A stretch of DNA of 63,415 nucleotides, filler included, from Stramenopiles sp. TOSAG23-6 (taxonomy: Eukaryota), in assembly GCA_900128565.1 (NCBI GenBank). It is 11 parts of 11 records of this genome, joined end to end, with 100 filler letters (N's around TTAATTAATTAA, not from the genome) between each part and the next. Parts side by side here need not be neighbours in the genome. Positions count along the whole stretch, not along the records: positions 1 to 10,900 come from LT636288.1; positions 11,001 to 21,853 come from LT636289.1; positions 21,954 to 32,790 come from LT636290.1; positions 32,891 to 43,697 come from LT636291.1; positions 43,798 to 54,565 come from LT636292.1; positions 54,666 to 56,042 come from LT639147.1; positions 56,143 to 57,518 come from LT639148.1; positions 57,619 to 58,993 come from LT639149.1; 3 more parts are not named here. One strand, given 5' to 3'. Positions 456 to 63,324 of this stretch are shown here, piece after piece; the stretch's first letter is position 1, and each line of letters begins with the position of its first letter. The notes under the pieces are model-generated. The model saw nothing but the letters and a program-made list of their open reading frames with translations, searched no databases and was not told the DNA's origin. The position numbers were made by a program, and so were the translations under genes.

Positions 456-487
<32 letters not shown>

Positions 488-8070: not shown

Positions 8071-8889
8071 ATGAGTTCTACTTCTAAAATTAGACCTCAA
8101 CCAGAAGACGTAAAACCTTTACGTTTTGCTTTGAAGTTTAGCCCACCTACAGTTCTCCTTGAATATTCATTGCAATCTAGTGGAAAAATATATCACTATT
8201 GCGTAAAACTTAATCGAATGGACTTTAATGGAGAAAATTCAGAAAATAAAGTCGTTGCAAAACTTCGTTCAAAATATGATCTTCTCGTAAAACCAGGTTT
8301 AATTTCCAACGAACAGCTTCGACGTCTAATTGAGCGTTTGTTTGCTGGTGTTCAATCATCAAATAGTTCTAATAACAATCAGCATGATGTATGTTTTATA
8401 TGAATTTCTAATTTAATTTTTTTTTCATACGAAATTTAGTACCTAACAAATTTTAGTTTTTTTTTTTNAAANTATTTTTTCACAATACTTGTACATTCAA
8501 AAAGTTCTTCAAACACGTCTTTCAGAGATACTGAAAAAAAACCAACAGTTGAAAATATTGACATGGTTTTGCCACCGACTCCACCTTCAACAAATCAATC
8601 CAAGAACTCCCAGAATTCTCAAAATGTTTTTGAAAAATATGCCGATGAAAGTATCAATTTGAACAAAATGAATAAACAAGAACTTGATTTAGTAAAGGCA
8701 GAAATGTCTGTAGAATTTGAAAAAAAACGTTTGAGACCAGGCGATGAAGGTTATAAATATGACGTTCAAGTGGATTTTGAAGAAGGAACTGAAGAAAATG
8801 ATTGGGATGATGATGAAAGTACAGATATTGAAGAAAACGAGGATGAAGAAGAATTTAATTTTGACTTTGTGAATGGTGATTCAATTTAG
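8071..8889 (+). CDS. CEP19: Centrosomal protein CEP19-like, 2 exons
   Basis: ALKFSPPTVLLEY and NLNKMNKQELDLVKAEMSVEFEKKRLRPGDEGYKYDVQVDF; intron 8389-8490 (GT...TT) restores the frame. Confidence 0.8.
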
Positions 8890-9010
8890 AGTAAAAGATT
8901 CAGTTTAGTAAAATTTGTTTCATTTTTGGAAGTTGTTATAATTTATTCAGAGATTAAGCCGGTATATACTTCAAAGAAATATAGCCAGCATGCGAACAAG
9001 AAGAATATGT

Positions 9011-9799
9011 TCAATTGACTTTGCTTTCTTTCCCCATTGTTTCATCATCCTCAACAGGAAGTTTCTTAGGGGGGAGCGCATCAATATTTTTTTCAACCTT
9101 TTTATCTTCATCCTTTGCAGGACTTCGAGATCGAGAACGGGAGTATGAACGACGAGGACTTCTTGAGCGGGAAGCTGAACGAGATCTGCTTCGAGATCTG
9201 CTTCGACTTCTGGAATGACGACGTCCTCGATCACGTCGTCCTCTAGATCGACTGCGACTGCGGCTTTGCTCCTTTCGACGTTCCTCCTGAAGGACAATTT
9301 TTGACCGATCTCCAGAGCGCGTCTCTAGCTCAGAACCATCTAAGCCACTTATTGCACGATGCAGATCATCTTTGGTCATGAAATCCATAACGGCAGTTGT
9401 ATCTCCAGTCATATTGGCGTAACCAATGCTTTGAACAACTGGCCTAACGTGGTCTTTCAAATCTTGCCAACTACAACCTCTTGGAAGGTTGCTCATTGTC
9501 ATTCGAAATCCACCACGTCTTGGTGGCGAATTCCTAGGACGACGTTGGGGACCTCGTCTATCCCCTCTAGGATCAGCGACCTCTACTCGGATACGGCGAC
9601 CAGCAAACTCATACCTATCACGGTAGTGGCGTGCATCATCTGCATCATCTCGATTCGAGAACTCAATAAAGGCAAAAGAGGGTCCGTTGCGTGAATCCTT
9701 GATGTTAATGTCCCTAATTCGTCCATATTTATCAAATAGTCTTTCTAATTCTGACTCGCGAACGTCACGTGGGAGACCACCAACAAATAAACGACTCAT
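9011..9799 (-). CDS. Serine/arginine-rich splicing factor (SRSF1-like: RRM, pseudo-RRM, RS domain)
   Basis: RLFVGGL, FAFIEF, SWQDLKD signature, RSRS repeats; intronless. Confidence 0.92.
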   Translation of the reverse strand: MSRLFVGGLPRDVRESELERLFDKYGRIRDINIKDSRNGPSFAFIEFSNRDDADDARHYRDRYEFAGRRIRVEVADPRGDRRGPQRRPRNSPPRRGGFRMTMSNLPRGCSWQDLKDHVRPVVQSIGYANMTGDTTAVMDFMTKDDLHRAISGLDGSELETRSGDRSKIVLQEERRKEQSRSRSRSRGRRDRGRRHSRSRSRSRSRSRSASRSRSPRRSYSRSRSRSPAKDEDKKVEKNIDALPPKKLPVEDDETMGKESKVN

Positions 9800-9902
9800 T
9801 TTAACTCAAATTCAAGCTGTCCCCTGTAGGTAAATTTAAAAGAGTAAGCACTACTCGTGACGCGAATTCGGATCCGATCTCAAATCATATCTGGATTCGC
9901 TG

Positions 9903-9937
9903 AACCCTAACCCTAACCCTAGGGTTAGGGTTTAGGG
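9903..9937. repeat. Head-to-head telomere-like repeats (AACCCT)3 followed by AGGGTT/TTAGGG units
   Basis: aaccctaaccctaaccctagggttagggtttaggg in the divergent intergenic region. Confidence 0.75.
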
Positions 9938-10037
9938 GGTCAAACTTTTGAATGTTTTGAACAGGAACAATCAAGTTGAATCAACCTAATCATTCATTAA
10001 TCAAAACTACCTACAACTGTATGAATATTCATTTTCA

Positions 10038-10846
10038 ATGGAATGTCAAACCTCAAAAGAATCTGCATTAACTGAGATGAATGTAGCAAACAAAGTTCTT
10101 AAAGAACTCTGTAATGTCTGGAGACGAGACTTGTTCTTAAATGTCATTCCCTTCTGGCTTGATCATTCTCTTGACACCAAGTGCGGTGGTTATTTTACTG
10201 CACTTGATGAAGATGGAAGTGTTTATGATGATAGAAAGTACATGTGGCTGAACGGCCGACAAGTGTACATGATGTCTCGTCTATGTGTGGAATTTCCTAG
10301 TGCTGATGTTTGCAAAATAAATCAGTGGAGAGCGGCTGCGAAGCTTGGTGCTGAGGTATTAGATCGAGCTTTCGATGAGAAAGGCAAGTTGTTTTTTTCT
10401 ACTACCCGAGAAGGCATTCGCTTGCACTTACAGCGCAAGCCTTATTCGGCTGTGTTTTATGTACAAGGTGTATTACAATATTCCATAATGCTTCGAAAGT
10501 CTAAAGAATTTCAAGAAGCTGATATTTATTTCAAAAAAGCAAAAATAATGTTTGGAAAATTACAAACCTGGATTCATGTACGTTTGATTTTTTTCAATTT
10601 CGAATTTATTTTTTTTTCGTACGAAATTTCGTACCTAACATATATCACAAAAAACTATATACTCCTTTATTACATAAACCAAGTCTTTGTGGACGTCCAG
10701 AACCACCTCCAAATTTTAAGCCTCCAGAGTGTTCTGTGTTAAGTGATATAATGTGCGTGGCATCATTGGCGCTTGATTTTCTCGATGCACTTGATGAAGA
10801 TTCCTCTGAACGATTTCAATATTTACAAATTATTCGTCAATGTTCT
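10038..10846 (+). CDS. N-acylglucosamine 2-epimerase, N-terminal part (runs into an intron and the contig end)
   Basis: VIPFWLDHSLDTKCGGYFTALDEDGSVYDDRKYMWLNGRQVY; intron 10578-10675 joins WIH|KPSLCGRP. Confidence 0.85.
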
Positions 10847-10900
10847 GTACGTTTTCATTTCAATTTCGAATTTATTTTTTTTTCGTACGAAATTTTGTAC

Positions 10901-11000: not shown

Positions 11001-11058
11001 ACAAAATTTCGTACGAAAAATAAATTCGATTTTTTTGTAAAAAAAAAATAAAACACAC

Positions 11059-13681
11059 ATCATGTATACCATCAACAATATTATCAATTGCTTTATACCC
11101 TTGAATCAATTCGGTAATTGCAGAAGTCCATATTTCATTATATATTCCTCTATCTTTCTGGCCATAATTCTTTCTTTTCCTTGACTTTCCCTTATTCTGA
11201 TGATTTTTCATTGACATTTGCGACACAAATTTATTCAAAACATAACCACAAGAAACGTTTTCTTTAATAGTATTTGTTTTTGTTAAGGGCGTACATTTCA
11301 AATTATGAATAGGATGCATCCATGTATTTTGGAAAAATATTTCAAAAAACAATTCGTTAGGTACAAAATGTTTTGAAAAAAATAAATTAGAAATTGAAAA
11401 GAAATAAAACATACATAAACCTAATAACCGACCAGAAATTGTTTCCGATTTTAACAAAATAGAATATTTTGAGTTTTCTACAATTTTATCACAAAACTCT
11501 CCAAGGTTTGGAACATGGCAGAGATTACTTATAGATAAGATACGCATACAACGTTCTTGGAGACGTATTAAAGCAGACAAAATTGAGTCATTGCAATATA
11601 TACCACCTCGATGATGTCTAAATGATTGATGGAGATCTTTTGCTGTTGTCCCAATTTGTTGTACGATCTTGGGCGATTCAAAAGGAACTCTTTTCGATAA
11701 AATTTCTAAAAGTTTGAGCCGCAGGTTCAAAGTTGTTTGATTTTGAATATTTTTATTCTTTTCACTGATTTCAGGACAGGTAATTGAACTTGGTCTGAAT
11801 GATGATGTAAGTGTACCTCGAAGCCAATGACTATAATCAAAACGAATATGTGAACTATGTATTCGTCGACTACTATCTCTATTAATACTTTTTTTATGTG
11901 TACGTTTTTTTCTACTTTTAACAGGAATCTCATTCGAATCATAAATATAGTTGGCTGCTGTAGATGCAAATTGAAGAACACACCCAAGAAAGCTAGAATC
12001 CGTTGTATCAATATACATCTGTGTAATTTGTTGTAGAATACTATCAATAGAAATATTGGCACGTGTCATTATATATAAAATATCATCAATAGAAATTTTC
12101 CTGATATCTAATTGAAGTTTTGTATCGGATTTGACTAGGTTATATTTCAACAGATCAATTAATGCATGTGACAGTACATCAGTAATACTTGCACGAGGAA
12201 GAATACGAATCATTTCTTCAACTGAGCGACAAATTTCTAATGAATTCACAGCATTACGTTTCACGCGAATATTTACATCCGTACCAAATTTTCTACATGA
12301 ATGTTTTGAATTGTCCCGGCTAGAAGACATTGAAGATTTTGCATTGTCCCGGCTAGAAGACATCGAAGATGATTTTGCATTGTCCCGGCTAGAAGACATC
12401 GAAGATGATAGAACAAATTTCATAACTGACAATACACACTCTAACAGTACGAGAAAATTATAATCCTTGGTATTATTTTCAGGTTTCCAATCTGGAGGAA
12501 AACGTATTGTAAAAAAATATTAAAAAAANTGTTTGTTAGGTACAAAATTTCGTTCGAAAAAATAAATACATTCGAAATTGAAATGAAAATGTACAAGAGT
12601 CAGAAATGCTCGAGATACCGCTAGAGGATTTAAATATGCAGCGTTTTCTATTATTTGCTTCAACATTTTAGTTGAGTCGTTTGGCATATAAAATTTCTCA
12701 TACGAATTATTCGGAAGTGTTTTTAAAATAGTTGTGAAAGTAGAGTATTTCATACGAAAAAATGATTCATTGGCATTCAAAATGCTTTTGATAGCACAAC
12801 AAATATTTTTCGGCGTTGTACCATTTACATACAAATTATTATTGATAATTGTTTGAATATAAGCCATCAACAATTGATATGAATTTGATACAAGAGTACT
12901 CAATGAAGTCTTAAAGATTTCATTATATAACAGAGAATTCTTCAATATTTTAAAATTAAATGGAGCGTCATTTTTTCTATTTTTTCTATAAATGCTATTT
13001 GATGAACATTCCATCGTTTTACCGATATTTTTTCTATAAATGCTATTTGATGAACATTCCATCGTTTTACCCATATTATNATTGCCAGTAAACGAAGATT
13101 TTGCGACTTCAGAAACCAAATAATTACATACTATTTGCATTTTTTTCTCAAAATATACATCTTGATTTAGCTTTGTTGTTGACGAATTGATTGTAGCAGT
13201 ACATAAAAATCTGAGATAATTTGCCTTTGCAATACACGAAATCTGAATGTCTTTCNCAAAACATTGAACAATATAAAGAAGAGAAAGATGCGTAGGAGAT
13301 GCTGAACTATTATATCTTGTACGTATAGAAGTGACAGGCCTTGAATGTATCATTTCACAAATGAAGTCATTCATGTTTTTTTAAAAAATATTTCAAAAAA
13401 AAATTTTAAAAAATTTGTTAGGTACAAAATTTCGTATGAAAAAATAATTTCGAAATTCAAATGAAAACGTACATATTTACTTTTTTATCATTTTGATTGT
13501 TTTGATTGTTTTGATTATAATCATACCATTTTTGGAATATCGCGGTTGCAGATTTCACCTCATCTATAGGAATTTTACTTATATCATTGTTTAGAATATT
13601 TTCTACGGAAACTTCGTCGGGGTCTACTTCAAATACTGCTTCCTCAAGATTCTCTGATGTTGAAAATTCAAAATGCAAAGC
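11059..13681 (-). CDS. Uncharacterized multi-exon protein, partial
   Basis: ORFs 13457-13678, 12520-13374 and 10945-12432 join in frame after removing 13373-13472, 12502-12594 and 11322-11414. Confidence 0.6.
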
Positions 13682-13776
13682 AAATTTTTTCTGAAAAATA
13701 TTTCAAATTTTTTTTCGTTAGGTACAAATTNTCGTACGAAAAATAAATTCGAAATTGAAAAAAAAATAAAACGTAC

Positions 13777-15409
13777 ATTATTAGGAGGTATGTGAAATTC
13801 AGTTTCAGTTGTTAATTCACCTTCTACTGTAACTGTTGAAGCACCATCACTACCATTTGCGGTAGATTTTGCTGGTGTGGGAGGAAAAAGATGATCATAA
13901 AATTGTCCACCTTCATGTATTTAAGAAAATATTTCAAAAAAAAATCGTTAGGTACAAAATTGCGTACGAAAAAAAAATCGAATTTCAAAAAAAATAAAAA
14001 CATACATCGTAGTTGAGTATAAATACTGTTTTTGAATACACATGTGCATTATCTGGATCACCCAAAACAGCTAAAATTCTGGCACTTAAATCTTCACCAT
14101 CTTGAGGGTGATTTGAAGCATGTTCACTAAGAGCTGTTGGACCAACAATCCAACTTACTTGTGGTAATTGATCAGAGGCTACATCATTTGCAAATTGATC
14201 TACAACATTGTTACTTTTATACATACCCTTATCCCACAAAGGATCTCCAGGTTTTACATTTTTAAATTTTCCAAACCATGCAAAAGCATTATCATCAAAA
14301 TTATCTTTTTCTTGGTAGACTTTCCATGAAATTCCATTTTTTTCTAGTGTCTCCGCCATTGTTTCCCATCGCATTTCGTTTGAATATTGTTCAGAATCAT
14401 CCAAAAGACATAAATTTGAATCTTTTGCTGAGAGTCCATTAGAACCTGTAAAAAGGTGTTGCCTGTTGGGATTTGTTGCAGTAAAAGTAGATTGAAAGTA
14501 TTGATCACTGAGAGTAAATTCATCAGCAAGTGAATAATAAAATGGCAAATCTGTTCTATTAAAATAAGCCATACCATAACCAGGCTTCCTTGCAGTATTC
14601 CATGCATCAGCCCAACCATTATTCCATATGTTAATATTAGATTCATAGGCCATCTCTGGTGCTGGCATACAAGTTGCTGCTGTGTCTCTGAAGTGTAAAG
14701 GAAAAGGAAGCATATATTGTGCATCACATTTTACACCAGGCTTCCAACAAAACGTATCAACACCAGAGCAATCTCCAGAAGCATCATCACAACATACCAT
14801 ATCGTTACCATCACTCCTATTACACACTTGATCCTTCACGGAACAGTGCCAACCAGCACAAGTGTTTACACGGGATGGTTCCGGGGCGAACAAGTCATCT
14901 GGTAGTTGGGGAATTTTGACACGTAGGTCAGAGGGGCAAATTGGAGCTTCAGTCAAAGAATCGCGTACATTCAAGTGCTCAATAGTCGTAGTATATAAAT
15001 CATTCATGAATTCTGTACATGTTTCATTCCTTGCAACGTGTATGGGAGGAGACGCGCTTTTCAGTACGTCTAAAAACTCAGAACAAGTTGAACCATCAAC
15101 AATTTCACGAATATCAGAAGCACCATCTTTCCACTTCATACTACATGCGCTACATCCACATCGCGAGGAAGAAGTTGGTGGTGAAGGCTGGGGTACAGGC
15201 TGATAGAACGGAGATAATCCTGAAGGTAGTATGGGAGCAGTTCTATCGTTAAATCCTCGCACCCCTTTGAGTGACCCATAGTAGTGGTCAAACGAGCGGT
15301 TCTCTTGCATAAAAATCACAATGTGTTCAACATCACGGATTGTACCAGTAGGCTTACTTTCTGCAACCAAGATGGATATGAAATAAATCAATGTACTTAC
15401 TCTCATCAT
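13777..15409 (-). CDS. Secreted phosphocholine-specific phospholipase C (phosphoesterase family, PlcH/PlcN type), C-terminus missing
   Basis: Signal peptide, DVEHIVIFMQENRSFDHYYG, TNPNR, LPQVSWIV, NYD|EGGQFYDH across intron 13915-14005. Confidence 0.9.
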
Positions 15410-15656: not shown

Positions 15657-16340
15657 ATGAAAGGAATCATTATCAGTTTACTATTGATAAATTTGCAATC
15701 GTCTAAAATTCATGGACTCAGCGTATTAAGCAACGTTAAAGGGGATGAAAAGAAAAGAGATGCCAAGAAAGATACTAAAAATGGAAAAAACAAATATGCA
15801 GAGTTCCTAGAATCCAGCAACGAGTCAGATGAAGACGATGAAATGTATGAAAAAAGTATTGGAAAAAAGAAGGAAGTCACAGCTTCTCCTTTAAACAATG
15901 AGGAAAATACAAATGGTTCAATAATGTCACGAAAAATCAAACAAGCTCTCGAAAGTATATTACGCTCAACAAATGCAACGAAAGAAGATCAAGAGCAATT
16001 ACACCGAAAATCAAAAAAATTACAAGAAACAATGGATAGCTTATTAAGATCCGAACCTCAAAATAATGAAAATGCACACCACGTGCTAAAGTTGGCATTT
16101 GTTGATGGCAATAGAAATTTATCGCCTGGAATTAGTTTCTATCGTCGACCTCTCATTCTTCACCATGAAGCAGGTGATGAGACAGATACTGTAAATCGCC
16201 ACACAAAGACAATCATAATAATTGTTGTTTTGTTCATAACAGCTTTTTTCCTCTTTGTAGTCTTTAAAAGTTCTATTTGTGCAAATTATTCTCGCAAAAG
16301 AGAAAGAAGCATTAACAGTAAAGAATACCATGATTTGTGA
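15657..16340 (+). CDS. Predicted single-pass membrane protein with signal peptide
   Basis: MKGIIISLLLINL N-terminus and C-terminal helix TIIIIVVLFITAFFLFVVF. Confidence 0.55.
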   Translation: MKGIIISLLLINLQSSKIHGLSVLSNVKGDEKKRDAKKDTKNGKNKYAEFLESSNESDEDDEMYEKSIGKKKEVTASPLNNEENTNGSIMSRKIKQALESILRSTNATKEDQEQLHRKSKKLQETMDSLLRSEPQNNENAHHVLKLAFVDGNRNLSPGISFYRRPLILHHEAGDETDTVNRHTKTIIIIVVLFITAFFLFVVFKSSICANYSRKRERSINSKEYHDL

Positions 16341-16422
16341 CAAGGGGGTTTTAAATTTAAAATATATATATATTTGTACGAAATTTTGTACCTAACGAAA
16401 TTTATATAAAAACAGAAAAAAA

Positions 16423-19400
16423 TTATTTTTTAAAATAAATTCCTCTCTCTATTGCTGCTAGTCTACCTGCTCTTTCTGCAGCAGCCAATATATCAGCCAA
16501 TTTATCTCCTGCCCCAAACACCACAGGCGGACAATTTTTACTACTGTTTTCTATAATTCCCATTTTTTTTGAACTATATTTTACATTACTTTTATCATCT
16601 GATTTCTTGGAAGGTTCAAAAGAAGATTCCAATTCTGACATGCTTTGTGTACTTTCTTCAAATTCATCGCTATCACTAGCATAAATGTCATCAACACTCG
16701 TACGTAATTTGCAGTTAACATCGACAGTATTAAGAATGCTATTATGTTTGTTAGTTGTATTCTCACATGTTGTTTTTGTGTTGTATGCGTTTGAGAACAC
16801 CTTACTACTTGTATATTTTTTGGAAAATTCTTTTCGTCTATATTTGGGGATCACGGTTGCAGCGTATTTTTGAGACCAGTTTTTTGCATAATACTTTGTA
16901 TTATATGGATTCAGTTTTTCTGTATATTGTTCTGCATCATTATTACTACATTTACTATCATGTTTCGTAAAACTATTTGTTGAATCAGCACATTCAATAC
17001 CTTTCATTTGCTTACTTTTTTCTTTAATTGAAATTCTAGCATGGGTGTCACTTTGCCTCAAAGATTTTTTGCTTTCTTTTTGATTTAAATTCCTATACTT
17101 TGAAGTGTAATTGTGATTCTTTCTTTGCAATTTTCTAGAAGATTTTTTACCTGTTGTAAGGATTGCAGCTGGCGCCGCAGCAAAAATATAGTTTTTCGTA
17201 GATTTTGATACACTTGAAGTGATTTCTTTACTAGAAGTATGCTTATTTTTTTGTTTAGGTGTTAGTCTGAAACCAACGAGACCTAAGCCAAGACTAAATT
17301 CTCTTTCTTGTTTTTCTCGAAGTGAAACAAATGGTTTCCTATTATTAACATTTTCAGGATGATGGGCTGATTTATCCAGATTCGGTTTTCTATGTAATCC
17401 TTTATTCTTTTCGTGGTTATTCCTACGAGAATTTTGAGAATGTCTGTAGAGAACAGGGTTACATCGCATGAAAGTTCTGGAAGATACACGAAGTGTGTCT
17501 GAGAGCTTCATACTTAATCCTCGGGCAGATTTTGGTCTATTATATAAATGCCTTTGTGCAGACCTCTTTATGTGTCCTGATTTTGCACGTCTCTTTATTT
17601 TATTTTTCACAGTTTTTACATTTTTCACGTTTTTTATGTTTTGTATGTTTTTTATGGTAGACACACAAGAAAAATTGTCTGAATAACCGCTTCCTTTTTG
17701 GTGTATACCAATTTCAGCAACTAAATCATCATTTTTTATTTCATCTTTAAGTATATTTAATGTCTCTATATTTGATGATATTGTTCGTTCATCGTTACAT
17801 TTATTTGTTGAATCTTCTGAAAGTTCCGAACATGGCAAAGGAAAATTCGAATCCACTATATCCTGTACCAAATTAGTACATAGTTCATTTGAGGAGGATT
17901 GATTAACTACTATTGATTCTTCTTGCATACAAAACTTGATTTGTTTTGCTTCGGCAATCAATAACTTTTTCCACATGGTCAATGTAAGGTCATTAACGCC
18001 ATCATCAAATCGAAATTTTGTGTACTTATCCGAATCTTTTAATGAATTTTGTGTATTTTGTGTACAATGAAAGATATTGATTTTACCAGGGACTAATGTT
18101 TCTACATCGGAATTTTTGTCATGCATATCTTCCATACTTGAGTGTTGAAGGCATTCATTGGCAGACATTCTATTCTGTGGATTAAATGCTAACAAATTTT
18201 TTATAAGTTCTAACAATGTTGAAGTTAGAGTTGGACTTTTCCTTGTACATAAAAACTCTTCTAAAGTTGTTCTTTCTAAATTATTGTCAAGATTTATGCT
18301 ATATTCTTCCGTCTTGGTCTCTTTTTCATTAACTATTTCATGTTGTTTTTCATAATCTTCATCAAATTTTTCTACCTGAATACTTCTATCATTTGAACAA
18401 GTACCAAACTTCGTACTTAACGAATTTTGTACTTGCTGGGTTTCGGTCACAGTAGTCTTATTTTCAAGAAGAAACTTGATGGCAGCTCTATTCGTTATAG
18501 CATCCAAATCTGATTCACATGGATACCCAATCATATTAAAAATAGTTTGCAATTGATGAATGTAACTTTTTCCAGGGAATAGAGCAGTTCGAGCAATCAT
18601 TTCCCCAATAATACAGCCAGTCGCCCACATATCAATAGAATTCGTATAGTTCCTACAATTTAGTAATAATTCTGGTGCTCTGTACCAACGTGTAACGACG
18701 TACTCCGTCAAATCACCCGCTGATCGATGCTGTTCTGTTATGTCCCGAGACATACCAAAGTCACAAAGTTTTAACTCACAATTTGCATTCAGTAATATAT
18801 TGGATGGTTTCAAATCATGTATTGTGAAGTAATATATTACATTCGAAATTCATTAGGNACGGAATTTTCATAGTAAAAAAAATAAATTTGAAATCGTAAA
18901 GTAAATGTACACGATGTGTTACACTCGCTAGATGAATATGCTTCAGTGCACATAATAACTGATAAGTGATAAATATTATATGAAGTTCGCTTAATACAGT
19001 AGTTGACTGAATAACTCTATCTAAATCAGTTTCCATTAGGTCCGTGACTATATACATACTTGAGAGGTGTCCAGATTGACAACTAAATTTTTCAGGTCGT
19101 GAACTATCGCTATTTTCTAGGGAATCGATGGATTCATCCGAAGTATCTGCGTCATCAAAAATCTTTCCAGCACCGTGTATAATGATATCAAGTATACCAA
19201 GAATATTAGGGTGACAGAAATGTTCTAATAAACGGATTTCTCGTAGAGCTCGCCTAGCTTGCTCAGCAGTGTCACACACTACTCTTTTACAGGCGACATT
19301 GTGTTGAAAAAATGGATGTGAGGCTGCCCAAACGACACCGAACCGACCACTTCCGATCACATTCTTTGGAATGTATCCATGTCGCAGAAGAGTTCGTCTC

Positions 19401-19609: not shown

Positions 19610-20843
19610 CTAGAACAATACACTCTTTATCCAACGCCGAAAAGTTCCAATATAAATACATATTTCTGTATTATAGTCTGAATTACTATTCTCATTCGGT
19701 TTATAATATACACCCCAATATATTTTAACTTTCTTTTTAGCTGTAAGTATTTTGGAAAAATATTTCAAAAAAAAAAACTTAAATTTGTTAGGTACAAAAT
19801 TTACTATAAAAAAAAAATAAATTCGAAATTGAAAAAAAAAACATACAAGCACTTTTTTACGACATTTTTCTATAATTGAATTTTCACTGTCTTTAACAAT
19901 ATTTACATTCCAACCATGAGCTTTAATAAATTCAAGCAAAGAAGGATTATTCTTTTCTAAAGGTGGAATGTATTTTGGAAAAATATTTCAAAAAATAATC
20001 GTTAGGTACAAAATTTCGTACAAAAAAAAATTCGATTTTTTTGTAAAAAAAAAATAAAAAATACATATAAATCCGTTTGAATTTCCGAGTCCACCAATTT
20101 TGACGTAATACAACCAAATTTGATGATTTCGTTTGAGTGTCACTTTCATCTTTTTTGGTATTAGAGTTAGGGTTAGATGTAAAAAATAATTTTGGTAAAG
20201 GCAGTAATAAGGCTTCTGGGACTTTTTTATTCCAAGTTGTGTCATACCTACTAAAATCATATGTAAACAATCTAGCTCGTATGAAATTTGGTGATATCTT
20301 TATATTTCGCTTTGTATCAAGTAAATCAAGAACATCTGAAGTGCCGTGGTGAATTTTATGTATCAAATGGAGAAGCCAGGGAGCACTTTGATGTATTTTG
20401 GAAAAATATTTTCAAAAAAAAATCGTTAGGTACACAATTTCGTAAGAAACAAAATTCGATTTTTTTGTTAAAAAAAAAAATAAAACATACATAATTGCTC
20501 AATGCGGCAAACCACATTTGCCAATCAAGACGAGGTTGATAAGGTGCAACCCACGGCGGAGATTGTGTGGGGTCACCAGGTTTGTACCTGAAATGTATTT
20601 CTTCCCATGTGTTCCCATCGTCACTCCATTCAAGAATAATTTCAGGTCTTTCTACATTTGACACGTGTCGACCATTTTCATCAAATGTATCCGGACCTAC
20701 TCCAGTCATTGAACGAAATAAACCATAAGAAGATGAAATTGATGCAGTATTGAGCTGTTGTGTTTTTAATTTTACAATATACGGTATAAATTGAAGTGTT
20801 TTTGGTGACAAGATTTGAATAAGAATAACAGATGAGCCAATAC
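19610..20843 (-). CDS. Lipase maturation factor family protein, C-terminal part
   Basis: [54 protein letters not shown]; three family introns. Confidence 0.88.
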
Positions 20844-20941
20844 ATGTATTTTGGAAAAATATTTCAAAAAAAACATCGTTAGGTACAAAATTTCGTACGA
20901 AAAAAAAATTCGATTTTTTTGTAAAAAAAAATAAAACATAC

Positions 20942-21535
20942 ATACCGATAAACACCGACTAAAAACAAACGATCTTCAGATGGAATAAATTGAAGCCTTA
21001 ATAATTTTGAACGTAGTGAAAGTCTCTTATGAATACTATTTGTATTGTTTGTATTGTTTGTATTATTTGTATTATTTGTATAGTTTGTATTATTTGTATT
21101 ATTTGTATTGTTTGTATTGTTTGTATCTTCAAAAATACATAATTTTCTTCTTTTGGATTGGGTTCCATTTGAAATTTTTGTATAACTTTTTAGTTTAAAG
21201 TTTTTGTGATTTATTATTTGATTACAAATTGAATCTTTTGTTGGTTGTAATTGATTATTCATTTGTATTATATTTTCAGTATTTTTATTTTCATCATTTT
21301 TATTTTCATCATTTTTATTTTCAGTATTTTCAGTATTTTCAGTATTTTCAGAATATTTAGAATATTTAGAATATTTTGGATTTTCTATATTTTTCATTTG
21401 ATTCATAAAAATCAAATTTTTATATTCATCTTCAAAACGAAACTGCTGAGGCGCAAACCTGGCATCCATGTATTGTGAAAAAATATTGTAGAAAAAAATT
21501 CGTTAGGTACAGAATTTCGTATGAAACCAAAAAAC

Positions 21536-21568
<33 letters not shown>

Positions 21569-21798
21569 AAATGTATCATGGAAACAAACATCCAACCTTT
21601 AGCATTGTCATTATTAGTACTATTTTGATTATTTTGATTATTATGTTGATTATTTTGATTATTTGAAGAAACTATAGAATTAAATACAGATAAAGTAGCG
21701 ACGCTTCTATTCGAAAGAATCTGGCCAAAGTGAGAAGAATTATCTACAGAACTTTGATATGATTTAAAATATGATTCAAAATAATCTGAACTATGTAC
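20942..21798 (-). CDS. Uncharacterized Asn-rich protein fragment
   Basis: Two open exons separated by element 21468-21577; NNT and ENT microsatellite-derived repeats. Confidence 0.45.
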
Positions 21799-22443: not shown

Positions 22444-22493
22444 TTAAATGTAAAATGTCTTATACGAATAGGCGAAATAATTGATACTGTAAC

Positions 22494-26233: not shown

Positions 26234-28562
26234 ATGGCAAGCTTCGTTCCTGGACAGGGTTTGGTCCGACCTGCTGTTTCCCAAAGCTCAACGAGTCTAT
26301 CGGGACCCAATAGAAACAGTTTGCAAAAGACTCCGAAATTGAAATTTAGTAGTAGTGCGAGTGCATATTGGTCACCAAATACTGCAGGCTCAGCATCTGC
26401 AATGCCAACGTCCTCTCCCCCTTTACGTCCTGCTACGGGGGGACCAAATATGGCACAAACTTCAAAATCATTTATACCTAAAAGCCAAGGATATGTACCA
26501 CCGGCTCCTTTTACTCCTAGCGCCAAGGAATTTGTTCCAGGGGGTGTCAAAGAGTTTGTTCCTTCGGATGCCAAAGAGTTTGTTCCAGGGGGTGCCAAAG
26601 AGTTTGTTCCAACTGGTGCGAAACCTAACGCGACTTTCACGGCAAATTCTGGTGTATTTGTCCCTGTTACTACTAAAAATCCATCGAGCAGTTCTTTACG
26701 TAGTTCATCCGAAGCATCGGAGTTTATACCTGGGAATAGTGCACGTATAAATAAACCTGGGAAGAATGTAAATTCTGTCCCAGTCTTTGTACCTGGAAAT
26801 AATGTACCTGTGAATAAGCTTCCTGGAAATTACGTTCCTGGAAATTACGTAGATTCTCAACCTGTCTTTGAACCGAATGAAACTCCACGTGATTTTTTCG
26901 AATTACCACCATCTGTGCCTGCTATTCAGCCTCGTGTGATTAATTCGCTTTATATGCCTGATCATTTTAGGGATTATTTTGCTCACCAGTCAATGCATTT
27001 ACATGCCCAAGTTTCCGCTGGAGATGCTCGTTTAAAGATGATTCCTAAAGGATATGATTGTATACTCCCCCTTGACATACCAAGAGAAACAGGTGGTAGC
27101 TCGATAAATCCGCTTCCATATCCATCGTCCATCTTTAAGGTTGTTCGATGGAGTGATGTATGTTTTCATGATTATTTTCTATCAAACTTTTGTCTTCATA
27201 CGAAATTTTGTNCCNAANAAAAAAAANAAATTTTCGACATTTTGTTCAAAATACATGGGAGCGTGCTTGCCTTGCGGCGTGTCGATAAGTTGAGAACAAC
27301 GAACGAGATCCTTACTATAGTATCTAAGGCTTGGAAGCGTGTGCAGCACCCATGTGTTGTCTCGCTACAAGGCTCATTTATTGCAACAAATGGAATTTTT
27401 TTCTTACATGAATATTATCCTGGAGCTCAATCTCTCCTACAAAGATTCTTCACTCAACACCCTCAAAGTACTAGAGATATGATTCCGGAACCCTTGCTTT
27501 GGCGTATTGGTTGTGCCCTTGCCTCAGGTTTAAGAGCCATTCATGGAAATGGTTTATCGTCTAGATGTTTAAATCTAACACGAGTAATTATTTCAGGTCA
27601 TGGACGTGCCAGATTAGCAAATTGTGGCATAATGGATGTTTTAGAATTTGAATCAAGAAAAAGTCTTCAGCAGCTTCAAGAAGAGGACATTTTAGGTTTG
27701 GGTAAGGTACTTTTACAACTTTCTCTCCGAAGTCTCACTGCAGATCAAAATTTACAAAAGTCAATGTACGGTTTCATCATGCACTGTATATCCATTCTAC
27801 ATTTTGTAATTTCAAAACTAACAAATTTCAAATTTCTGAGATATTTTTTCAAAATAAAGGGATGCAGTATCACAAAGGTATTCGAAAGAATTAACATCTA
27901 TCATTGGAACATTAGTCTTAAAACGAGCTTCTATCTTTGACGTCGCGACATTGATGATGCAACATGCAGGTATGGCTTTGACTGAGAGTTTATATCAACA
28001 TACTGATTCATGTGAACGTCTTCTTCACAGAGAGCTAGAGAATGGTCGTCTTTTGTTGCTCATGTTAAAATTGGGCACTTTAAATGAACGACCTGCCAAT
28101 CCCAATTCAAGTAATGATAAAAATTCTTGGTCTGAAACTGGAAATCGGTACATGTTAAAATTGTTTAGAGATTATATTTTTCATCAACTAGATGCTAATG
28201 GTCGTCCTGTTGTCAATTGGGGTCATATTGTATCTTGTCTGAATAAATTAGACGCAGGAAGTTCTGAGAAAATTGTATTGATGTCACGGGATGAAAAATC
28301 TTTAATGGTGGTCTCTTTTGCAGATGTTCGTCGGGTGATTTCGGAAACGTTTGCAGAATTAACTCAACCAGCTTCACAAGAATACTATGACTTTAAACGG
28401 CGCGGTCATCATGGACGGGATGGAAGTATGCATAGATCCAGGTCAAATCGTATGGATCATGGGAGAAGAGCGTCGGGGATAAATACGAGAATGACAAGTA
28501 TGAACTTGAATGGTGGATATAATCGTAGTCGACGAGGTTCCAGTGGACGAGGTAGGTACTAA
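26234..28562 (+). CDS. PAN3: PAN2-PAN3 deadenylase subunit PAN3, 3 exons, about 711 aa
   Basis: PAM2-like AKEFVP repeats, pseudokinase, RELENGRLL...WSETGNRYMLKLFRDYIFHQ...HIVSCLNKLDAG; introns 27158-27256 and 27766-27859. Confidence 0.93.
27766..27859 (+). other. Canonical GT-AG intron with family-like 3' region
   Basis: AT|GTACGG...AACTAAC...ATATTTTTTCAAAATAAAG|G GAT gives QKSMDAVSQRYS. Confidence 0.8.
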
Positions 28563-31353: not shown

Positions 31354-31388
<35 letters not shown>

Positions 31389-39200: not shown

Positions 39201-40768
39201 AAAAAAAAAACATAAAACATACATGTATTAACTTTTGTTTCTTCTTTTGGTATATCCTGTTGTAGTTTTTCAAGTGATTTTTTCAATGTTATAATTTCTT
39301 CTTGAACGATTTTCAATTGATCTTTGGCACCTCTTGTCTTAAAACCACCATGTAATAGTAGAAAAAATATTTCAAAAAAAATACCAACTTGTTAGGTACA
39401 TTTTGTTTTTCATGAAAAAAAAAACGTTAGGTACAAAATTCCGTAAGAAAAAAAACAAACTCGATTCAAAGCAGCAGAAGCAGCGACTGAATCACTTTGA
39501 TCAGTCATTCGACATTGTTGTTCAATTTCACGAAATTTCGTGTCATAGCCGACTGAGACTTTTTCTAGACCAGCGATTGCTTTTTCAAGTTCAAGTTTTA
39601 ATTTTTTATTGTTTTGTCGTTTTTTCATTTGTCTTTCTTTTTCAGATTTTAACATGACGGAAACTTTCACAATTTTATTTCTTTTTTCTTCTATTTCAGA
39701 TTCTAATTTTGCAATCATGTATTTTGGAAAAATATTTCAAAAAAATTTCAAAAAAATTGTTAGGTACAAAATTTTTTTACCAAAAAAAAAAAAAATAAAA
39801 TAAATTCGATTTTTTTGTAAAAAAACAAAATAAAACATTCATAAGATTACAACCTTTGACAGTATCAATCGATTGAGGTTTTAGACTTTTTGCCTTTGCT
39901 GCGGAACGAAGTTCAGAACATATATTGTGAAAAATATTTTTTTTTTTACCGAAAAAAAAAATCGTTAGGTACAAAAGTTCGTACGAAAAAACAAATAAAT
40001 TCGAAATTTAATTTTGAAAACGGACGCGCCGCTTCAATTTCATTACGCATATAATTAAATGCTACAATTTGTGCATTCATGTAATTTTGGAGAAATATTT
40101 TTTTTGTAGTACAAATGTTTTGTTAGGGTCCTAGGTATGAAATTTTTATATAATTTTTTTTTTTTGAAATTTTTTTTTTCTTTGAAAGTAATGATAAAAA
40201 CATACATATTTTTTCGTATTCGTGTTATTTGTTCGGTATTTCGTGCAACTCGACTTCTTTCCAATTTTTCAAATCGCTCAAAAGCATTGTCTAAGAATGT
40301 AGTACTTTCAGCTGATAACTTTTCCGCAAGATCAAGAGAAATTGATGTTGGTGTTCCTTCATCTTCTTCATTTGTCGATTCTACAAATTTAGACAAGTTG
40401 GTTAGTTTTTTAAATGAAGATGACAAATCTCTCATGGATTTTAATTTCTTTTCCCCTATTTTTTCAAAATCTTGTAGCATATACTTTGTTGTATCTTTCC
40501 TATCCTCTATTTCACGAGACATTGTACCCAACGTCGCTTCTTGTGCATCAGCATAACCATATTCTAGATCCCATTTTTCGGTCGTGGTGTCAACACGTTT
40601 TTGAATTGAATCTTTGGAGTCTCGCATGTCCATTGCGACCCTTGCTAGTTGTATATACCTTTCTTCGGCTTCCTTTGGTGGTAAAAGACGAAAACGTTTG
40701 AACATGTTTGTATCGTCATCTTCTTCAGTGGTTTTTATATTACTAATAGTAACACTTTTCTTCTTCAT
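33279..40768 (-). CDS. Large coiled-coil protein, 18 exons, about 1862 aa
   Basis: Removing 17 family introns (1901 nt) from 7490 nt leaves 5589 nt, with phases matching at every junction; E/K-rich helical sequence. Confidence 0.75.
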
Positions 40769-41217
40769 TGTAAAAACGGAGCCAATGAGTAAAAACACAA
40801 AATAAGTAGACAAATTAAGGAGTGTAGTTTTGAAATTAAGTTATAAAATTGCAGTGTAAACACTCAACCTTTAAATGTGTGCTTTATAAATATCTTTTGA
40901 GATTGTTTTTATATGGTAACTGCATCATGCTTTTTAAGTGTATCCAATTGTCCACTACTACTTACTACTAAAACTAAAAATAGAAAGGTTTTTACAGTTT
41001 CATCATTCGCAGAGTAGTCAATTACCGGGTAACCTACTTTCAAAATTATTTTTTTTGTGTTTGATGTCAATGAGTCAGTGACTCAACACAAAACACATCA
41101 ATCACGTGATCATTTGCTATTTTTCTGCTACCATAGGACCTACGCAACTCCTTTGCAACAATTTAAATTGCTTTGTTCAATACTATTAATACTATTAATA
41201 CTATTAAGATATTTACA

Positions 41218-41841: not shown

Positions 41842-42000
41842 AAGATGATCAATACAATTGAACAACTTTCAATGTTACAAAATAAAATATGGTACACATT
41901 GTCGTTGTATTTATCAAATGATTAAAATATTTTAGTTTTTTTACGAATATTTTGTTTTATAAAACAAAAATAATAATCAAAATTGATTTTTTTTTATACA

Positions 42001-43130
42001 TCAATTCAAATAGTTCAATGGTAACCATCCAGAATTTTTAGTTCTTTTATTTCTTCCTTTACACCATCCATCTTTTCGATACTCAATAATTTCAATTGTA
42101 TCACCAGCTTTAATTGCCAACTCATATAGTATTAAAAAAAATTCAAAAATGTTTTACTATTAGGTACAAAATTTTGTACGAAAAAAAAAAAAATCGAAAT
42201 TGGTTTAAAATTTTTTTTTTTCGTTAGGTACAAAATTTACTATGAAAAAAAAAATATGTTGATAAAAAATTGAAAAAAAAAAAAAAAAAAGTACATCTTC
42301 TCTCTGAGGTTTATATTCCCATTGTGCTTCTTTTATATCATGACCAAATTTTGATTTTGACTTTTCTGAATCTCCTTTGGTTTTGACTTTTTTGGCCTTT
42401 TTGGGATTCCGAATTTCGGATGTTTTCCCAGTCGATTTGTCTGCATTTTCAAGTTGACTTTCAATTGTTTCCGTTTCATCAATTTCTTTCTTTTCTCTAC
42501 GCTTTTTTTTAGTACGTTTTGATGATTTGCTGGAATTTGTATTTGTACCAGCAGATGCTCTACCAATCATATACATGCTAAAAGAGATAAATAATTGGAT
42601 AGTTAATAGAATGAGACACAAATAGCTATATAACCCTAACCCAATTGAATTTGTTGCCATTTTCATAATGGTACTAATGCATAGTAATATCCATAAAACC
42701 AAATCAATAAAGACAAAAACCTTTCGAGCAATTGTAGATTCAGAGAATTTTTCCCAATCTTTTTTACAGTAACAATTTATTGGATACTTTCCTTTTGTGC
42801 AACCTTTCACTAGGAGTACATTAATGGCTACAACATTCCATAACAAACAAAAGTACTGTGAAAAAATATTTAAGATTCATTTGGTTTTGTTAGGTACAAA
42901 ATTTTCATTTTTTTTTTGGTAGGTACAAAAGTTTCATAATAAAATAAAACATACAAAAGTGAAACTACAAAAGACCACATCAACCAAGACCGGAGACCTT
43001 GGTTACTATCATTGAGCCTTGCCATTAAAAATATTGAATAAATAATAACCAAAACACGAACTGTACAATGAATAGAGAAAAGTAAAGGTGTAGCATTACG
43101 AGTTTCAGTGTCAATAATCTTTTCATGAGT
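42001..43130 (-). CDS. Four-TM protein with C-terminal SH3 domain
   Basis: Four hydrophobic helices; AQWEYKPQRED|ELAIKAGDTIEIIEYRKDGWCKGRNKRTKNSGWLPLNYL across intron 42124-42294. Confidence 0.7.
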
Positions 43131-43237
43131 ATGTATTTTGGAAAAATATTTGAAAAAAATCTTTAAAAATTTGTTAGGTACNAAANTTACTATNAAAAAA
43201 AAANTTCGATTTGTTTGTAAAAAAAAATAAAACATAC

Positions 43238-43626: not shown

Positions 43627-43797
43627 ATGAAATTTGGAAAAATATTTCAAAAAAAAAAAAAAAATGTTAGGTACAAAATTTCGTACGAAAAAAAAAANNN
43701 NNNNNNNNNNNNNNNNNNNNNNNNNNNNNNNNNNNNNNNNNTTAATTAATTAANNNNNNNNNNNNNNNNNNNNNNNNNNNNNNNNNNNNNNNNNNNN

Positions 43798-54565: not shown

Positions 54566-54665
54566 NNNNNNNNNNNNNNNNNNNNNNNNNNNNNNNNNNN
54601 NNNNNNNNNTTAATTAATTAANNNNNNNNNNNNNNNNNNNNNNNNNNNNNNNNNNNNNNNNNNNN

Positions 54666-56142: not shown

Positions 56143-57432
56143 CTGTTAAATGTTGTTCATGCTCAATGTTATGTCCAATTGTTAAAGCTGATTCCATTGC
56201 AATACTTCTGCGTTGATTAAGATACTCCAAGGATTCTTTTTGATTTTTATCTGTCATATCTGCAACTAAAACACCGACTGAATCCTTATACATTTGAAAA
56301 TCAGGATGCTCCGTCGAAATTCGTGTTTTCTCCATTGAAATTAACATTGTAACCAAATCTTTTGTTTTGCCTAATGATTTCTGAATAAATGCTTTTGTTA
56401 AATTAATAATTTCGTCTCGTAATGAATCAAAAACAACCATACCAGACACTGAAATAGACTCCGCAATATTATTAAGTTCCGTATAACAATCATCTACACA
56501 TGTATTTTGGAAAAATATTTCAAAAAAATCTAAGTTATTCACAAGTGACATGTCATTAGGAAAACTGACTAAAAATATTTCATTAAGACGTGCTCCACCT
56601 ATCACATCATCTCCAGAAAATGTATTGTGAATTTATATAAAAAAGAAAACAAATATCAGGTACAATTGTTTTTGAAAAAAATTGAAAAAAAATTGAAAAA
56701 AAATTAAAAAAAAATTGAAATTGAAATTGAAAAAAAATTGAAATTCAAGAGTAAGAAAGACACAAAACAATTAGGTACAAGATTTTGTACTAAAAAAAAA
56801 CATACCATCTTCTCCAGTCCCGTATATAATTTCTTGTAACTTTTTGTGATAGACGTATTGTGAAAAAATATTTTTTTTTTGATTTTTTTTGTTAGGTACA
56901 AAATTTCGTATGAAAAAAAAAATAGACAAAAAAATGAAAAAAACATACACACATGCCGTATCGATGACATGTCTCTGTTTCTCATCTTGACTTTCTAGCT
57001 TTGGTATAGAATCCAAGTCCTGTTGTTTCTGGAAGATGAATTTTTTCACTTTTTGTTCAATTTCTGGTAAACATGAAAAAATATGCTTTTTTAATACAGA
57101 ACTCAATTTTGTTACTAAAACTTCTGTACCCCCTCCAGGTTTTGGCAAATTAGAATATATTGTGAAACATTATTTCAAAACAACATTCTTTAGATTTGGA
57201 TTATTTTTTTTGAAAGAAAAATAAATTTTAAAAAAAATAGTTAGGTACAAAATTTTGTATGAAACAAAATAAATCTGAAATTCATGATTAGATTCGAGAG
57301 TAAAGCATACATATTGAGGATGATTTGCAAAATATGCTTTTTCTGATTCCCATTGCTTATTGATAGCTTTATCATTTTTGATATCTTTTTGACTTCGATT
57401 TACCACAGGAATCCAACCCAATTTCAACGGGA
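56143..57432 (-). CDS. Dynamin-related GTPase fragment (end of GTPase domain and middle domain)
   Basis: PLKLGWIPVVNRSQKDI, YFANHPQY|SNL, LKKHIFSCLPEI, IGGARL, ISTEHPDF; several family introns. Confidence 0.8.
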
Positions 57433-61114: not shown

Positions 61115-61890
61115 ACAATTGGAGGAAAAAGTTGTTGATATCCACGGAGATGAGGTATTATCACAGATTCCAAAGGCGGAGCATCTTGATAGCACAGACG
61201 CCCATCTGAAGCGTGCAAAAAAGCACCTCAAAGCAGGTCGTCTTATACATGCTGGTGTTGATTTTGCACGTGCTGAAGATCACGATGCTGTTTTAGGACT
61301 GGGTAGAGCTTCAATTGAATGGAAAAAGATTAATGATTTACTGGCAAATAAGGAATATGTCTTGGCTAATGAAGCTATTGAAAAAGTAGAAAAAAATGAC
61401 GTCAATAATGCTAAAAAGCACTATTCTATTGCATTACGTGCGGATCCTGACGCATCGGTTAAGTCAGAATTTAAGATAGTTCAAACACTAGCAAAACTAA
61501 TTAAAAACACAAACAAGTGGTTAGATAAATCGTATAATCATCGAGCATTGAAATTAATCATTGAAATTGAAGAAATATTGAAAAATCTAAATATTAAAAC
61601 TCATCGAATTAACGCAAAGGTTTCATTGTTAGCATGTCGTGGAGAATCTGCTGTTAAACATCATGAAATAGCAATTACTCGTTGCGAAAATGCTTTGCGT
61701 TATTTCGAAGAAAAAATTCCTGGACTTCATGTTGATCCGTTCCAAATCATTTTAGCTAGAAAAACTCTAGCTAAAGCTCATATGAATGACTTTAATTTTG
61801 ATGAAGCTGTTGTTGAGTTCAGGAAAGCATTAACACTGTTAGAAGAAAATAATGCTAGTAATGAAGAAAAGAATGAAATGAGGCATAGTT
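61115..61890 (+). CDS. TPR protein, DNAJC3/P58IPK-like fragment
   Basis: TPR-like helices (AKKHYSIALRADPD, FDEAVVEFRKAL); first 280 nt duplicated at 60569-60848. Confidence 0.5.
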
Positions 61891-62096
61891 GTATGTTTTA
61901 TATGAATTTCTAATTTAATTTTTTTTTCATACGAAATTTCGTANNNNNNNNNNNNNNNNNNNNNNNNNNNNNNNNNNNNNNNNNNNNTTAATTAATTAAN
62001 NNNNNNNNNNNNNNNNNNNNNNNNNNNNNNNNNNNNNNNNNNNTTGTACCTAACAAAAATTAATTTTTTTTTTTGAAATATTTTTCCAAAATACAT

Positions 62097-62246
62097 GTGT
62101 GTCTCAGACGATATGAAAAGGAATTATGGTCACCTTTGGCGTATAAAACTTTGATTCGCCGATTAGGATTAACCCTGACACCACCACAAGAACGTGTTTT
62201 TGCTGCTGTATATAATTGGAGAGATGAAATTGCTCGTCGTGAAGAT
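62097..62246 (+). CDS. EXOSC10: Exosome component 10 (Rrp6) exon at the start of the HRDC domain
   Basis: VCLRRYEK...QERVFAAVYNWRDEIARRED. Confidence 0.7.
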
Positions 62247-62352
62247 GTATGTTTTATTTTTTTTTCAACAAAAAAATCGAATTTATTTTTCATACGAAAT
62301 TTTGTACCTAACGATTTTTTTTTTTTTTTTTAAATATTTTTCCATAAAACAT

Positions 62353-63324
62353 GTTTTGGGGACTCTTAGAGATCAAGTTTGTTATCCTGAATCTACAGAA
62401 ATTGCTAGGCAAATGTCTGAAGATGAATTAAGATCTTTACTTCGTGAAGTCGATTTAGAATATATTATGAACCAAAGAACACCAAAACAAAAATCAATAA
62501 TGTATAAAAATGATGTTGATGATGAGATTGTGGATTGGGAAATGAGATTATCTATGGGAGAACAACAACGATTAGCATATGTTTTCATTATTTTTTGTTT
62601 AAATGTTTTTTTGTAGTTAATTTTGTACCTAACAAAAAAATATAAAATTTGAAAAAACATATTTTTTCACTATATACGATGGCACGTCTTTTTTATCATC
62701 ATAGTAAAAAACAAAAAACGACATTGGATGGTACCCCTAACCCTATAATACATGCGAAATTTGCAATTTTAGATGAATGTACGTCGGGGGTGAGTGCGGC
62801 AATGGAAAGACGTTTATATAATATATGTGCTAAGCGCAATATTACATGTATAACAATATCACACCGACCAGCGTTGGCCAAATTTCATGATGTTGTACTT
62901 AATATTTTAAAAGATGGAAAAGGCGGATGGACCTGGACAAAAACGAATTCGTTGAGACAAAATAATGATAACCCTAATCCTAAAGACATCAAAAGCTCTT
63001 CAATTATTGTCGAACAACCTCATTCTCAAGGAAAACATTCTCAAGGGGATGATGATACGGATAGTGCAGGTAATGCTTTAGCTGAAAGAAAATGTTTGCA
63101 AGAAAGAAGTCAAGTATACATGGATGCATGGGAAGAACGACAAAGTTCTAATGATAAAAAAAACATAGAAAATCAGAGAGGGTTTTTATACGGAAAATCT
63201 CTAACTCATGTAGGCATTACAAAGAGAATCTATGATGTATTATCAAAGTTTTGTCCGAATGGCTTTGATCTGCATGACAGTGAAGTGAGGAGAGTTTTAT
63301 TACTGATTGGTCTTGTTGTGTCAA
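62353..63324 (+). CDS. Peroxisomal ABC transporter subfamily D fragment
   Basis: VLGTLRDQVCYP, LSMGEQQRLA|MARLFYH, FAILDECTS, CITISHRPAL. Confidence 0.9.
62577..62677 (+). other. AT-AC member of the intron family
   Basis: TTA GC|ATATGTTTT...TTTTGTACCTAAC...CACTATATAC|G ATG GCA restores QQRLAMARLFYH. Confidence 0.75.

Follow-up and report, generated by a model that had tools for sequence, protein, structure and literature searches.

The window considered here is a 63,415-nucleotide stretch of DNA from the AT-rich marine protist Stramenopiles sp. TOSAG23-6 (assembly GCA_900128565.1), put together as a chain of contigs, whose genes are split by copies, about 100 nucleotides (nt) long, of a single element. 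The element opens with GTA(T/C)GTTTT, runs through a T-rich interior to TTTGTACCTAAC and closes with GAAATATTTTT(C/T)CA(A/C)AATA(C/T)NN, and its copies, with their donor, branch point and U-tract, are found in the sense direction within conserved genes. Many similar introns of this kind occupy unrelated host genes, and the 21-Mb assembly contains 4342 exact matches to the core pattern and none to a reversed control, the count being inflated by duplicated contigs; the copies form one introner-like family. Three matches to the core came up in metagenome data, all lacking a donor, and are taken as chance. The best named matches to the CCT-beta protein of the host, at about 70%, are stramenopiles (Triparma, Phytophthora, Tribonema, Aplanochytrium), and the organism is therefore taken as a deep stramenopile.

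A sequence-only reading of the window had proposed that the 3' splice site of these introns lies three nucleotides after an AATA box and is not fixed by a dinucleotide, the acceptor being positioned either by the box or by pairing of AAAATAC with the intron's 5' end. The observation is partly confirmed and the interpretation partly supported by the analysis of about 0.95 Mb, comprising the window and further loci of the same genome, of which the first 20 regions were picked partly for their density of copies. Anchoring on the branch point gave 344 candidates, 279 of them with good donor and 3' scores and 271 testable for frame. From 300 well-formed copies, 194 were retained that have just one open frame class, and in 192 the end was confidently assigned by a motif model among the in-frame positions; this selection was adopted because the ends should not be defined by the box itself.

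The frame-restoring junctions described earlier do occur. All six example types are found behind branch-point motifs, namely AAAATA-CAT at many sites, CAATA-CTT at 8483-8490 (+) and 36685 (-), CAATA-CGT at 12509 (-) and 56860 (-), AAAATA-TAT at 36152 (-) and 36968 (-), CTATA-TAC at 62670-62677 (+) and AAAATA-AAG at 27851-27859 (+), and the box variants AAAGA, CAGTA and CATTA are present too. A cut three nucleotides after the box opens the frame in 226 of the 271 testable copies, against 39 and 38 for cuts shifted by one and two nucleotides. Ends in TT, GT, AA, AC and CT also restore the frame, and among 60 ends that are neither AT nor AG, a class which includes mis-assigned ends, 38 frames are open at that position versus 16 and 6 at the shifted ones. 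For instance, removal of the copy at 8389..8490 (+), which runs GT...CTT behind an exon ending in AT, joins the open reading frames (ORFs) 8053-8403 and 8440-8889 in frame. Another example is the MAP kinase copy at 18817..18910 (-), an intron GT...CAT behind an exon ending in GT, which falls within the HR|D catalytic motif and fixes the register; alignment with PDB structures places this junction at R138|D139 of the ERK2 chain, and that of a RecQ gene at A350|F351. In the kinase copy the next AG is 40 nt downstream, and AG therefore cannot be the acceptor there.

When considered as a universal rule, a cut three nucleotides after the box holds for most copies only: the box is exact in 127 of the 192 copies, has one mismatch in 35 and at least two mismatches in 30, so that a box within one mismatch followed by the 3-nt spacing is found in 162. 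Twenty-four of the 30 copies with the poorest boxes end in AT, and one box-less junction, in an ABCB gene, is required by homology. Conversely, an exact AAATA or CAATA lies upstream yet unused in 137 of the 192, mostly as GAAATA-TTT, where the proposed rule would permit a TTT end. Absent in some copies and unused in many, the box is neither necessary nor sufficient. The motif said to precede it, AAATATTTTT(T/C)C, is present in only 92 of the 192, and the context given for the 3' end omitted both the branch point GTACCTAAC and a 2-nt duplication. Nor is the end free of any dinucleotide preference, since AT closes 150 of the 192 introns, C or T stands at -3 in all 192 and G is the first exon base in 120; outside this set, exceptions at -3 are the AAG at 27859 and two of the 47 scorable copies that start with A. 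That AG is not the acceptor signal, on the other hand, was rightly claimed. The YAG acceptor typical of U2-type introns is not the rule here, AG closing 7 of the 192; AG between branch point and junction is passed over in 54 of them, with a CAG only 5 nt upstream in 8, and the first AG downstream shows no excess of in-frame positions (52 in frame versus 61 and 45).

A contribution from upstream sequence is borne out by the upstream YAT trinucleotides passed over in 180 of the 192 copies. The branch point lies 31-46 nt from the junction in 184 and the U-run ends 9-12 nt upstream of it in 166. Compared with 228 upstream YAT decoys, used sites follow a U-tract more often (172/192 versus 98/228) and are followed by G far more often (120/192 versus 8/228). 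The AATA box as sole positioner is not supported: box and AT show no mutual compensation (Fisher p=0.36), and where an exact box is lacking (55 copies), CAT is in the open frame 41 times, against 9 and 11 in the other frames. The branch point TACCTAAC is 95-100% conserved per position, a circular figure given that the copies were found by that motif. In many copies a palindrome, TTTCGTACGAAA, lies 10-20 nt upstream of the branch point, its core being present in 50 of the 192.

Several other ways of placing the acceptor were considered and rejected. Scanning for the first YAT is incompatible with the decoys just mentioned, and masking of these decoys by local structure with their being more open than the used sites. 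A ruler counting from the branch point is at odds with a bimodal distance across 31-46 nt. For pairing of the 3' end with a small nuclear RNA (snRNA), the best match falls within stem I of U1 and the others reach -6 kcal/mol or weaker. Finally, a strict rule linking first and last base fails: A-start copies favour C at -1 (5/47 versus 4/184, p=0.019) but mostly end in T.

The origin of the 3' end becomes apparent from the flanks. Among 95 copies in which the exon does not end in AT, 29 introns end in the same dinucleotide as the exon (GT/GT, TT/TT, AA/AA and others), while a shuffled control gives a mean of 4.6 and a maximum of 12 in 5000, and flank identity drops with divergence from 9/21 through 6/19 to 3/24. 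A target duplication of 2 nt, most often AT, supplies the last two intron bases as its second copy and forms the acceptor; the duplication is recognised from the flanks, with no empty site seen. The element itself is bounded by a short, imperfect terminal inverted repeat, GTAT(G)TTTT versus AAAATAC. Common descent together with duplication around inverted ends accounts for both the fixed 3-nt acceptor spacing and the complementarity of the 5' and 3' ends, and the fixed spacing looks like an inherited trace of a transposon rather than a new positioning signal. An AT duplication is known from the ISL2EU transposon (PMC4482050, as far as the available text goes). The A|AT|T target of that element is not what is found here: AT is favoured, yet G follows it in 55-62% and the base before it varies. 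Elsewhere in the genome (L201, about 1050-2920), a PIF/Harbinger-type transposase gene faces a convergent second ORF, with a shortened copy of the intron element between them.

As regards the splicing machinery, the genes for U5, U2, U1 and U4 lie head to tail within about 640 bases (L054 9-645, contig G000:C1146), and U6 is located elsewhere. U2 GUAGUA, U5 loop 1 and U6 ACAGAGA are canonical. By contrast, positions 2, 5 and 9 at the 5' end of U1 deviate from the Rfam consensus and face intron +7 (T), intron +4 (C/T) and the last exon base (-1, T), that is, the positions at which the donors of this family depart from CAG|GTAAGT. Against CAT|GTAYGTTT, the U1 of this genome forms a mean of 10.0 pairs out of 11, compared with 7.3 for canonical U1; at the three changed positions pairing reaches 0.97, 0.97 and 0.88, versus 0.02-0.03, and the median energy of the U1-donor duplex is -11.0 versus -1.9 kcal/mol. 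The U1 search, which scored 41 of 253 candidates, gave two matches representing one locus on two duplicate contigs, with 54.1 bits (below the family cut-off of 69.5) and an E value of 8e-12. All 24 genomic matches to the canonical U1 core ACTTACCTGG were checked and none lies within a U1, in an assembly which may miss a copy. The only U1 found is complementary to the donors of the family and presumably functions as a U1 changed to match them.

The near-invariant pyrimidine at -3 agrees with an unaltered Prp8 alpha-finger, in which the glutamine reading that base (human Q1522) is retained. This residue probably corresponds, with an offset in numbering, to yeast Q1594, reported to read the -3 pyrimidine (10.1101/212811; PMC12262433; both available in part). 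Prp8 shows 20 departures at well-conserved columns, a level also reached by 4 of 120 homologues, so that no single change can be blamed. Within the Prp8 gene (L115), near-invariant columns read MTAGQATF in place of MASGSTTF (human ~1250-1254), E1795D and K1801R lie near the RNase H hairpin, and KGM is replaced by PFL at 1866-1868, adjoining ambiguous bases. A divergent U2AF65-like protein (L195 1105-3069), 26% identical to an animal U2AF65, carries two RRM1-type domains before its UHM, a layout it has in common with six unrelated environmental proteins.

Taken together, these features are best explained, in our judgement with fair though far from full confidence, as U2-type spliceosomal introns made by an introner resembling a miniature inverted-repeat transposable element and removed by a U2 spliceosome that is otherwise ordinary but whose U1 has co-evolved and whose check for AG is relaxed. 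The element spans GTA(T/C)GTTTT to (A/C)AATAC, with its imperfect terminal inverted repeat and the flanking 2-nt duplication, and the gene is restored when cuts are placed at the element's first base and behind the second duplication copy; this geometry is visible in the DNA, and transposition would be its probable cause. The donor CAT|GTAYGTTT would be read by the U1 changed at three positions, and the branch point TACCTAAC would pair with unchanged U2. Acceptor choice would then depend on a composite signal, comprising a branch point and the end of a U-tract, respectively 31-46 and 9-12 nt upstream, a -3 pyrimidine recognised by the retained glutamine of the Prp8 alpha-finger, a preferred AT and a following G, in other words YAT|G after a U-tract, with the spliceosome no longer demanding G at -1. 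The AATA box may contribute without being necessary or sufficient, and pairing between the ends would not be required. Among non-G acceptors, CAU and UAU work best in yeast lacking Prp18, with upstream poly(U) assisting (PMC10711555, text available in part), which shows that the U2 active site can dock such acceptors. Spliceosomal removal, composite choice of the acceptor and the relaxed check at -1 all seem to us likely on this evidence.

A number of points weigh against this explanation. Splicing and its precision are deduced from reading frames and conserved proteins; the motif model for the 3' ends was trained on the same copies, which inflates their conservation, and several of the 192 assigned ends are visibly wrong or chimeric. 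Even among the third of copies that have diverged most, conservation of the box positions remains at 80-95%, so that selection on the box may persist, and box and U-tract are inherited together and hard to separate (box 162, U-tract 172 and neither 6 of the 192). Skipping of the TAT 13 nt upstream is not accounted for by accessibility. A search with PF13359, the only one made for a transposase with matching ends, gave five matches, and neither of the two distinct loci inspected has these ends. U2AF35 is not among 17 CCCH matches and Prp18 has no candidate; the assembly is incomplete and the Prp18 search recovered no control, so that both absences serve as leads only. The motif that we take to be characteristic of U2AF35 likewise has no match. 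As for expression, five seawater metatranscriptome runs have 6-12% of words in common with window positions 33000-42999, which is evidence neither way on splicing.

The strongest competitor assumes that a protein, such as the divergent U2AF65-like factor, binds the U-tract and CA(A/C)AATA and that the cut follows 3 nt downstream whatever the dinucleotide. The box within one mismatch in 162 of the 192 copies, the A residues at -9, -7 and -4 that stay at 91-95% in diverged copies, the intact boxes in front of frame-restoring TT, GT, AA, AC and CT ends and the YAT decoys passed over all speak for such a ruler, and the U2AF65-like protein with its two RRM1-type domains is a candidate for it. This account is nevertheless unlikely, considering the 30 copies without the box (the ABCB junction among them), the exact boxes left unused, the lack of compensation between box and AT, and the recurrence of the two-RRM1 architecture in unrelated proteins. 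Positioning by pairing of AAAATAC with GTATGTTTT, joining the two ends in the manner of euglenid nonconventional introns, is clearly less credible and in our view improbable. Folding gives it some encouragement, the ends being paired in the predicted fold of four of six window copies (two with z below -2.9). Over 267 copies, however, the pairing probability of the ends exceeds 0.5 in 42 and has a median of 0.001, and pairing between cognate ends is no stronger than with shuffled partners (-3.73 versus -3.62 +/- 0.07 kcal/mol). Where +4 is C, its partner stays A in 94 of 101 copies and is G in 4; where +1 is A, T stands at -3 in 13/47, against 38/184 for G at +1 (p=0.33). Across 275 copies no covariation or compensatory change was found, an outcome that the sequence-only reading had itself named as decisive against pairing, and a scan of all 5' by 3' position pairs yields strong signals only from subfamily linkage (+10/+11 with -8/-11) and the duplication, with no conserved covarying stem of the euglenid type. 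Moreover, U1 binds the same bases far better, and in spliceosome structures the second step finds +1 to +6 occupied by the branch and U6.

Two further readings question the nature of the introns themselves. If both cuts lay 2 nt upstream, the introns would run AT...AC with a fixed AC acceptor and might be of the U12 type; with AT on both flanks the mRNA is identical in either register, and TAC is indeed the element's end. In the set of 58 copies whose flanks differ, however, the 2-nt slide breaks the Walker A motif GKST and creates two stop codons, and none was recognised as favouring it; it also breaks the kinase HRD and, judging by what we take to be their motifs, alters SET, photolyase and ABCD proteins. 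The pairing of U1 likewise places the donor at GT. The donor is GTAYGTTTT and not the RTATCCTT of U12-type introns, for which U11, U12 and U6atac were not searched, and of 50 A-start copies, the 47 scorable ones end in AT in 32 and in AC in 5. The register is GT...NN, and an AT...AC register is scarcely believable. Removal without a spliceosome, either from the DNA or by another enzyme, or an origin of the copies largely as assembly artefacts, is very unlikely as well. Some joins through copies are indeed chimeric, such as that at 62247, and inverted contig duplications exist; the copies nevertheless carry donor, branch point and U-tract, are oriented in the sense of the conserved genes around them, have a donor matched by U1, and restore conserved proteins when removed.

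Much in this family recalls known systems. The introners IE1 of Micromonas and those of Aureococcus are thousands of similar short introns with terminal inverted repeats, in which the element carries the donor and takes the acceptor from the target duplication (PMC11282704, in its available parts, as for the euglenids below); here a 2-nt duplication, AT in most cases, makes the acceptor something other than AG, and the PF13359 search found no partner transposase. A comparable case is offered by Fritillaria borealis and F. pellucida, whose non-canonical U2 introns derive from transposons, with an acceptor from the duplicated exon end, conserved U2, U5 and U6 motifs, and 3' AT as the commonest acceptor, at 34% and 44%, respectively (PMC13326754; 10.1101/2025.08.15.670264, from the text available). 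There, however, donors are non-GT (AG-AC, AG-AT), the 5' end of U1 is strictly conserved and U2AF is duplicated, whereas here donors are GT, the branch point is strong and the 5' end of U1 itself has changed. Co-evolved U1 arms that complement atypical donors have been described as AACAAAC in Entamoeba and ACGUAC in Mastigamoeba; the U1 found here has the ACGUAC core of the latter and an A facing +7 as in the former, and differs from both in that the base facing the last exon nucleotide has also changed (C9 to A), matching the AT duplication, a change that, like non-AG acceptors, does not figure in the available part of that source (10.1101/2022.06.08.495308). In yeast without Prp18, CAU and UAU ends are a minor error class of a mutant; here they are apparently the main acceptor of the genome (PMC10711555, as available). 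Euglenid nonconventional introns also have inverted repeats at their ends and duplicated flanks, but they lack a pyrimidine tract and have a conserved structure, whereas full U2-type signals and no covariation are found here (PMC11282704). A literature search, with subscription literature mostly outside its reach, returned no paper on GT-AT introns in a stramenopile. New here are the three changes in the only U1 found, which match CAT|GTAYGTTT, introners and U1 co-evolution being already known.

A bolder scenario, which we offer tentatively and would not yet back, is that invasion by an introner targeting AT shifted the splicing code from AG|GT...AG to AT|GT...AT: U1 would have been rewritten for exons ending in AT, the check for AG (U2AF35, Prp18) lost or disabled, and the acceptor set mainly by its position behind the U-tract, with AG skipped and most dinucleotides accepted after a pyrimidine. 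If true, both a core snRNA and the fidelity of the 3' splice site would have been rewritten by a transposon in a natural genome. Why introns end in AG has been explained through the pairing that AG makes with the branch adenosine and the intron's first base (10.1101/212811, part of the text), and a genome mostly using YAT with normal GT donors provides a natural test of AG as chemistry versus proofreading. The matched U1 would be a rare case of snRNA co-evolution, at an exon-pairing position and apparently driven by the target site of a transposon. In practical terms, most genes with introns in this organism will be modelled wrongly by gene finders for which AG is obligatory. A box or end pairing acting as ruler would be more exotic if true, and the evidence leans little that way.

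The remaining copies of the window are distributed as follows. Introns GT...CAT lie at 6453..6547 (-), whose ends are paired in the predicted fold, at 7063..7165 (-) and at 27158..27256 (+), the latter in a gene that is presumably PAN3-like. Two copies are degenerate: that at 10578..10675 (+) has no AATA box or U-tract and its CAT end is still in frame, and that at 27766..27859 (+), supported by frames, has the AAG end, a normal AG acceptor with A at -3. Five copies occupy 11322..14005 (-), at 11322-11414, 12502-12594 (CGT end), 13373-13472, 13682-13776 (uncertain end, probably a mis-join) and 13915-14005. Another five split one gene at 19745..21589 (-), which we take to resemble a lipase maturation factor; its copy 19745-19846 ends in CTT with a TT duplication and the donor of the copy at 21468 is uncertain. 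The richest example is a large gene at 33279..40765 (-) with 17 copies, GC, GA and AT donors among them and a CTT acceptor with TT duplication at 36678-36785. Three copies follow within 42124..43237 (-), at 42124-42294, 42851-42954 (CAGTA-CTT, TT duplication) and 43131-43237, and one at 56853..56948 (-) runs GT...CGT with a GT duplication. The AT...AC copy at 62577..62677 (+), source of the CTATA-TAC example, interrupts an ABCD-type transporter at QQRLA|MARL, and the copy at 62247..62352 (+) joins two unlike exons, presumably Rrp6-like and ABCD-type, and is probably an assembly chimera. Partial or degenerate copies without a clear donor or frame test lie near gene ends at 392-480 (-), 4700-4830 (-) and 16340-16430 (+).

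Exons of unrelated genes are joined through a copy at window positions 62247-62352 and 13682-13776 and at L058 6523-6601, which points to assembly chimeras across the repeat. Many contigs terminate within a copy, and contig G000:C4 repeats itself in inverted orientation. On the minus strand of L049, at about 1500-3900, a gene that we take to be GPAA1-like has GTAAGT, GTAGGT or GTATAT donors, several AG ends, two of them in AG|GT...AG introns; these atypical copies are possibly older introns or insertions into AG targets. Telomere-like CCCTAA/TTAGGG arrays lie at window positions 9901-9940 and are otherwise scattered between genes, within ORFs and within some introns, and the minus strand at 43746-54617 holds a Gly/Ser/Thr repeat ORF of 3600 amino acids without introns.

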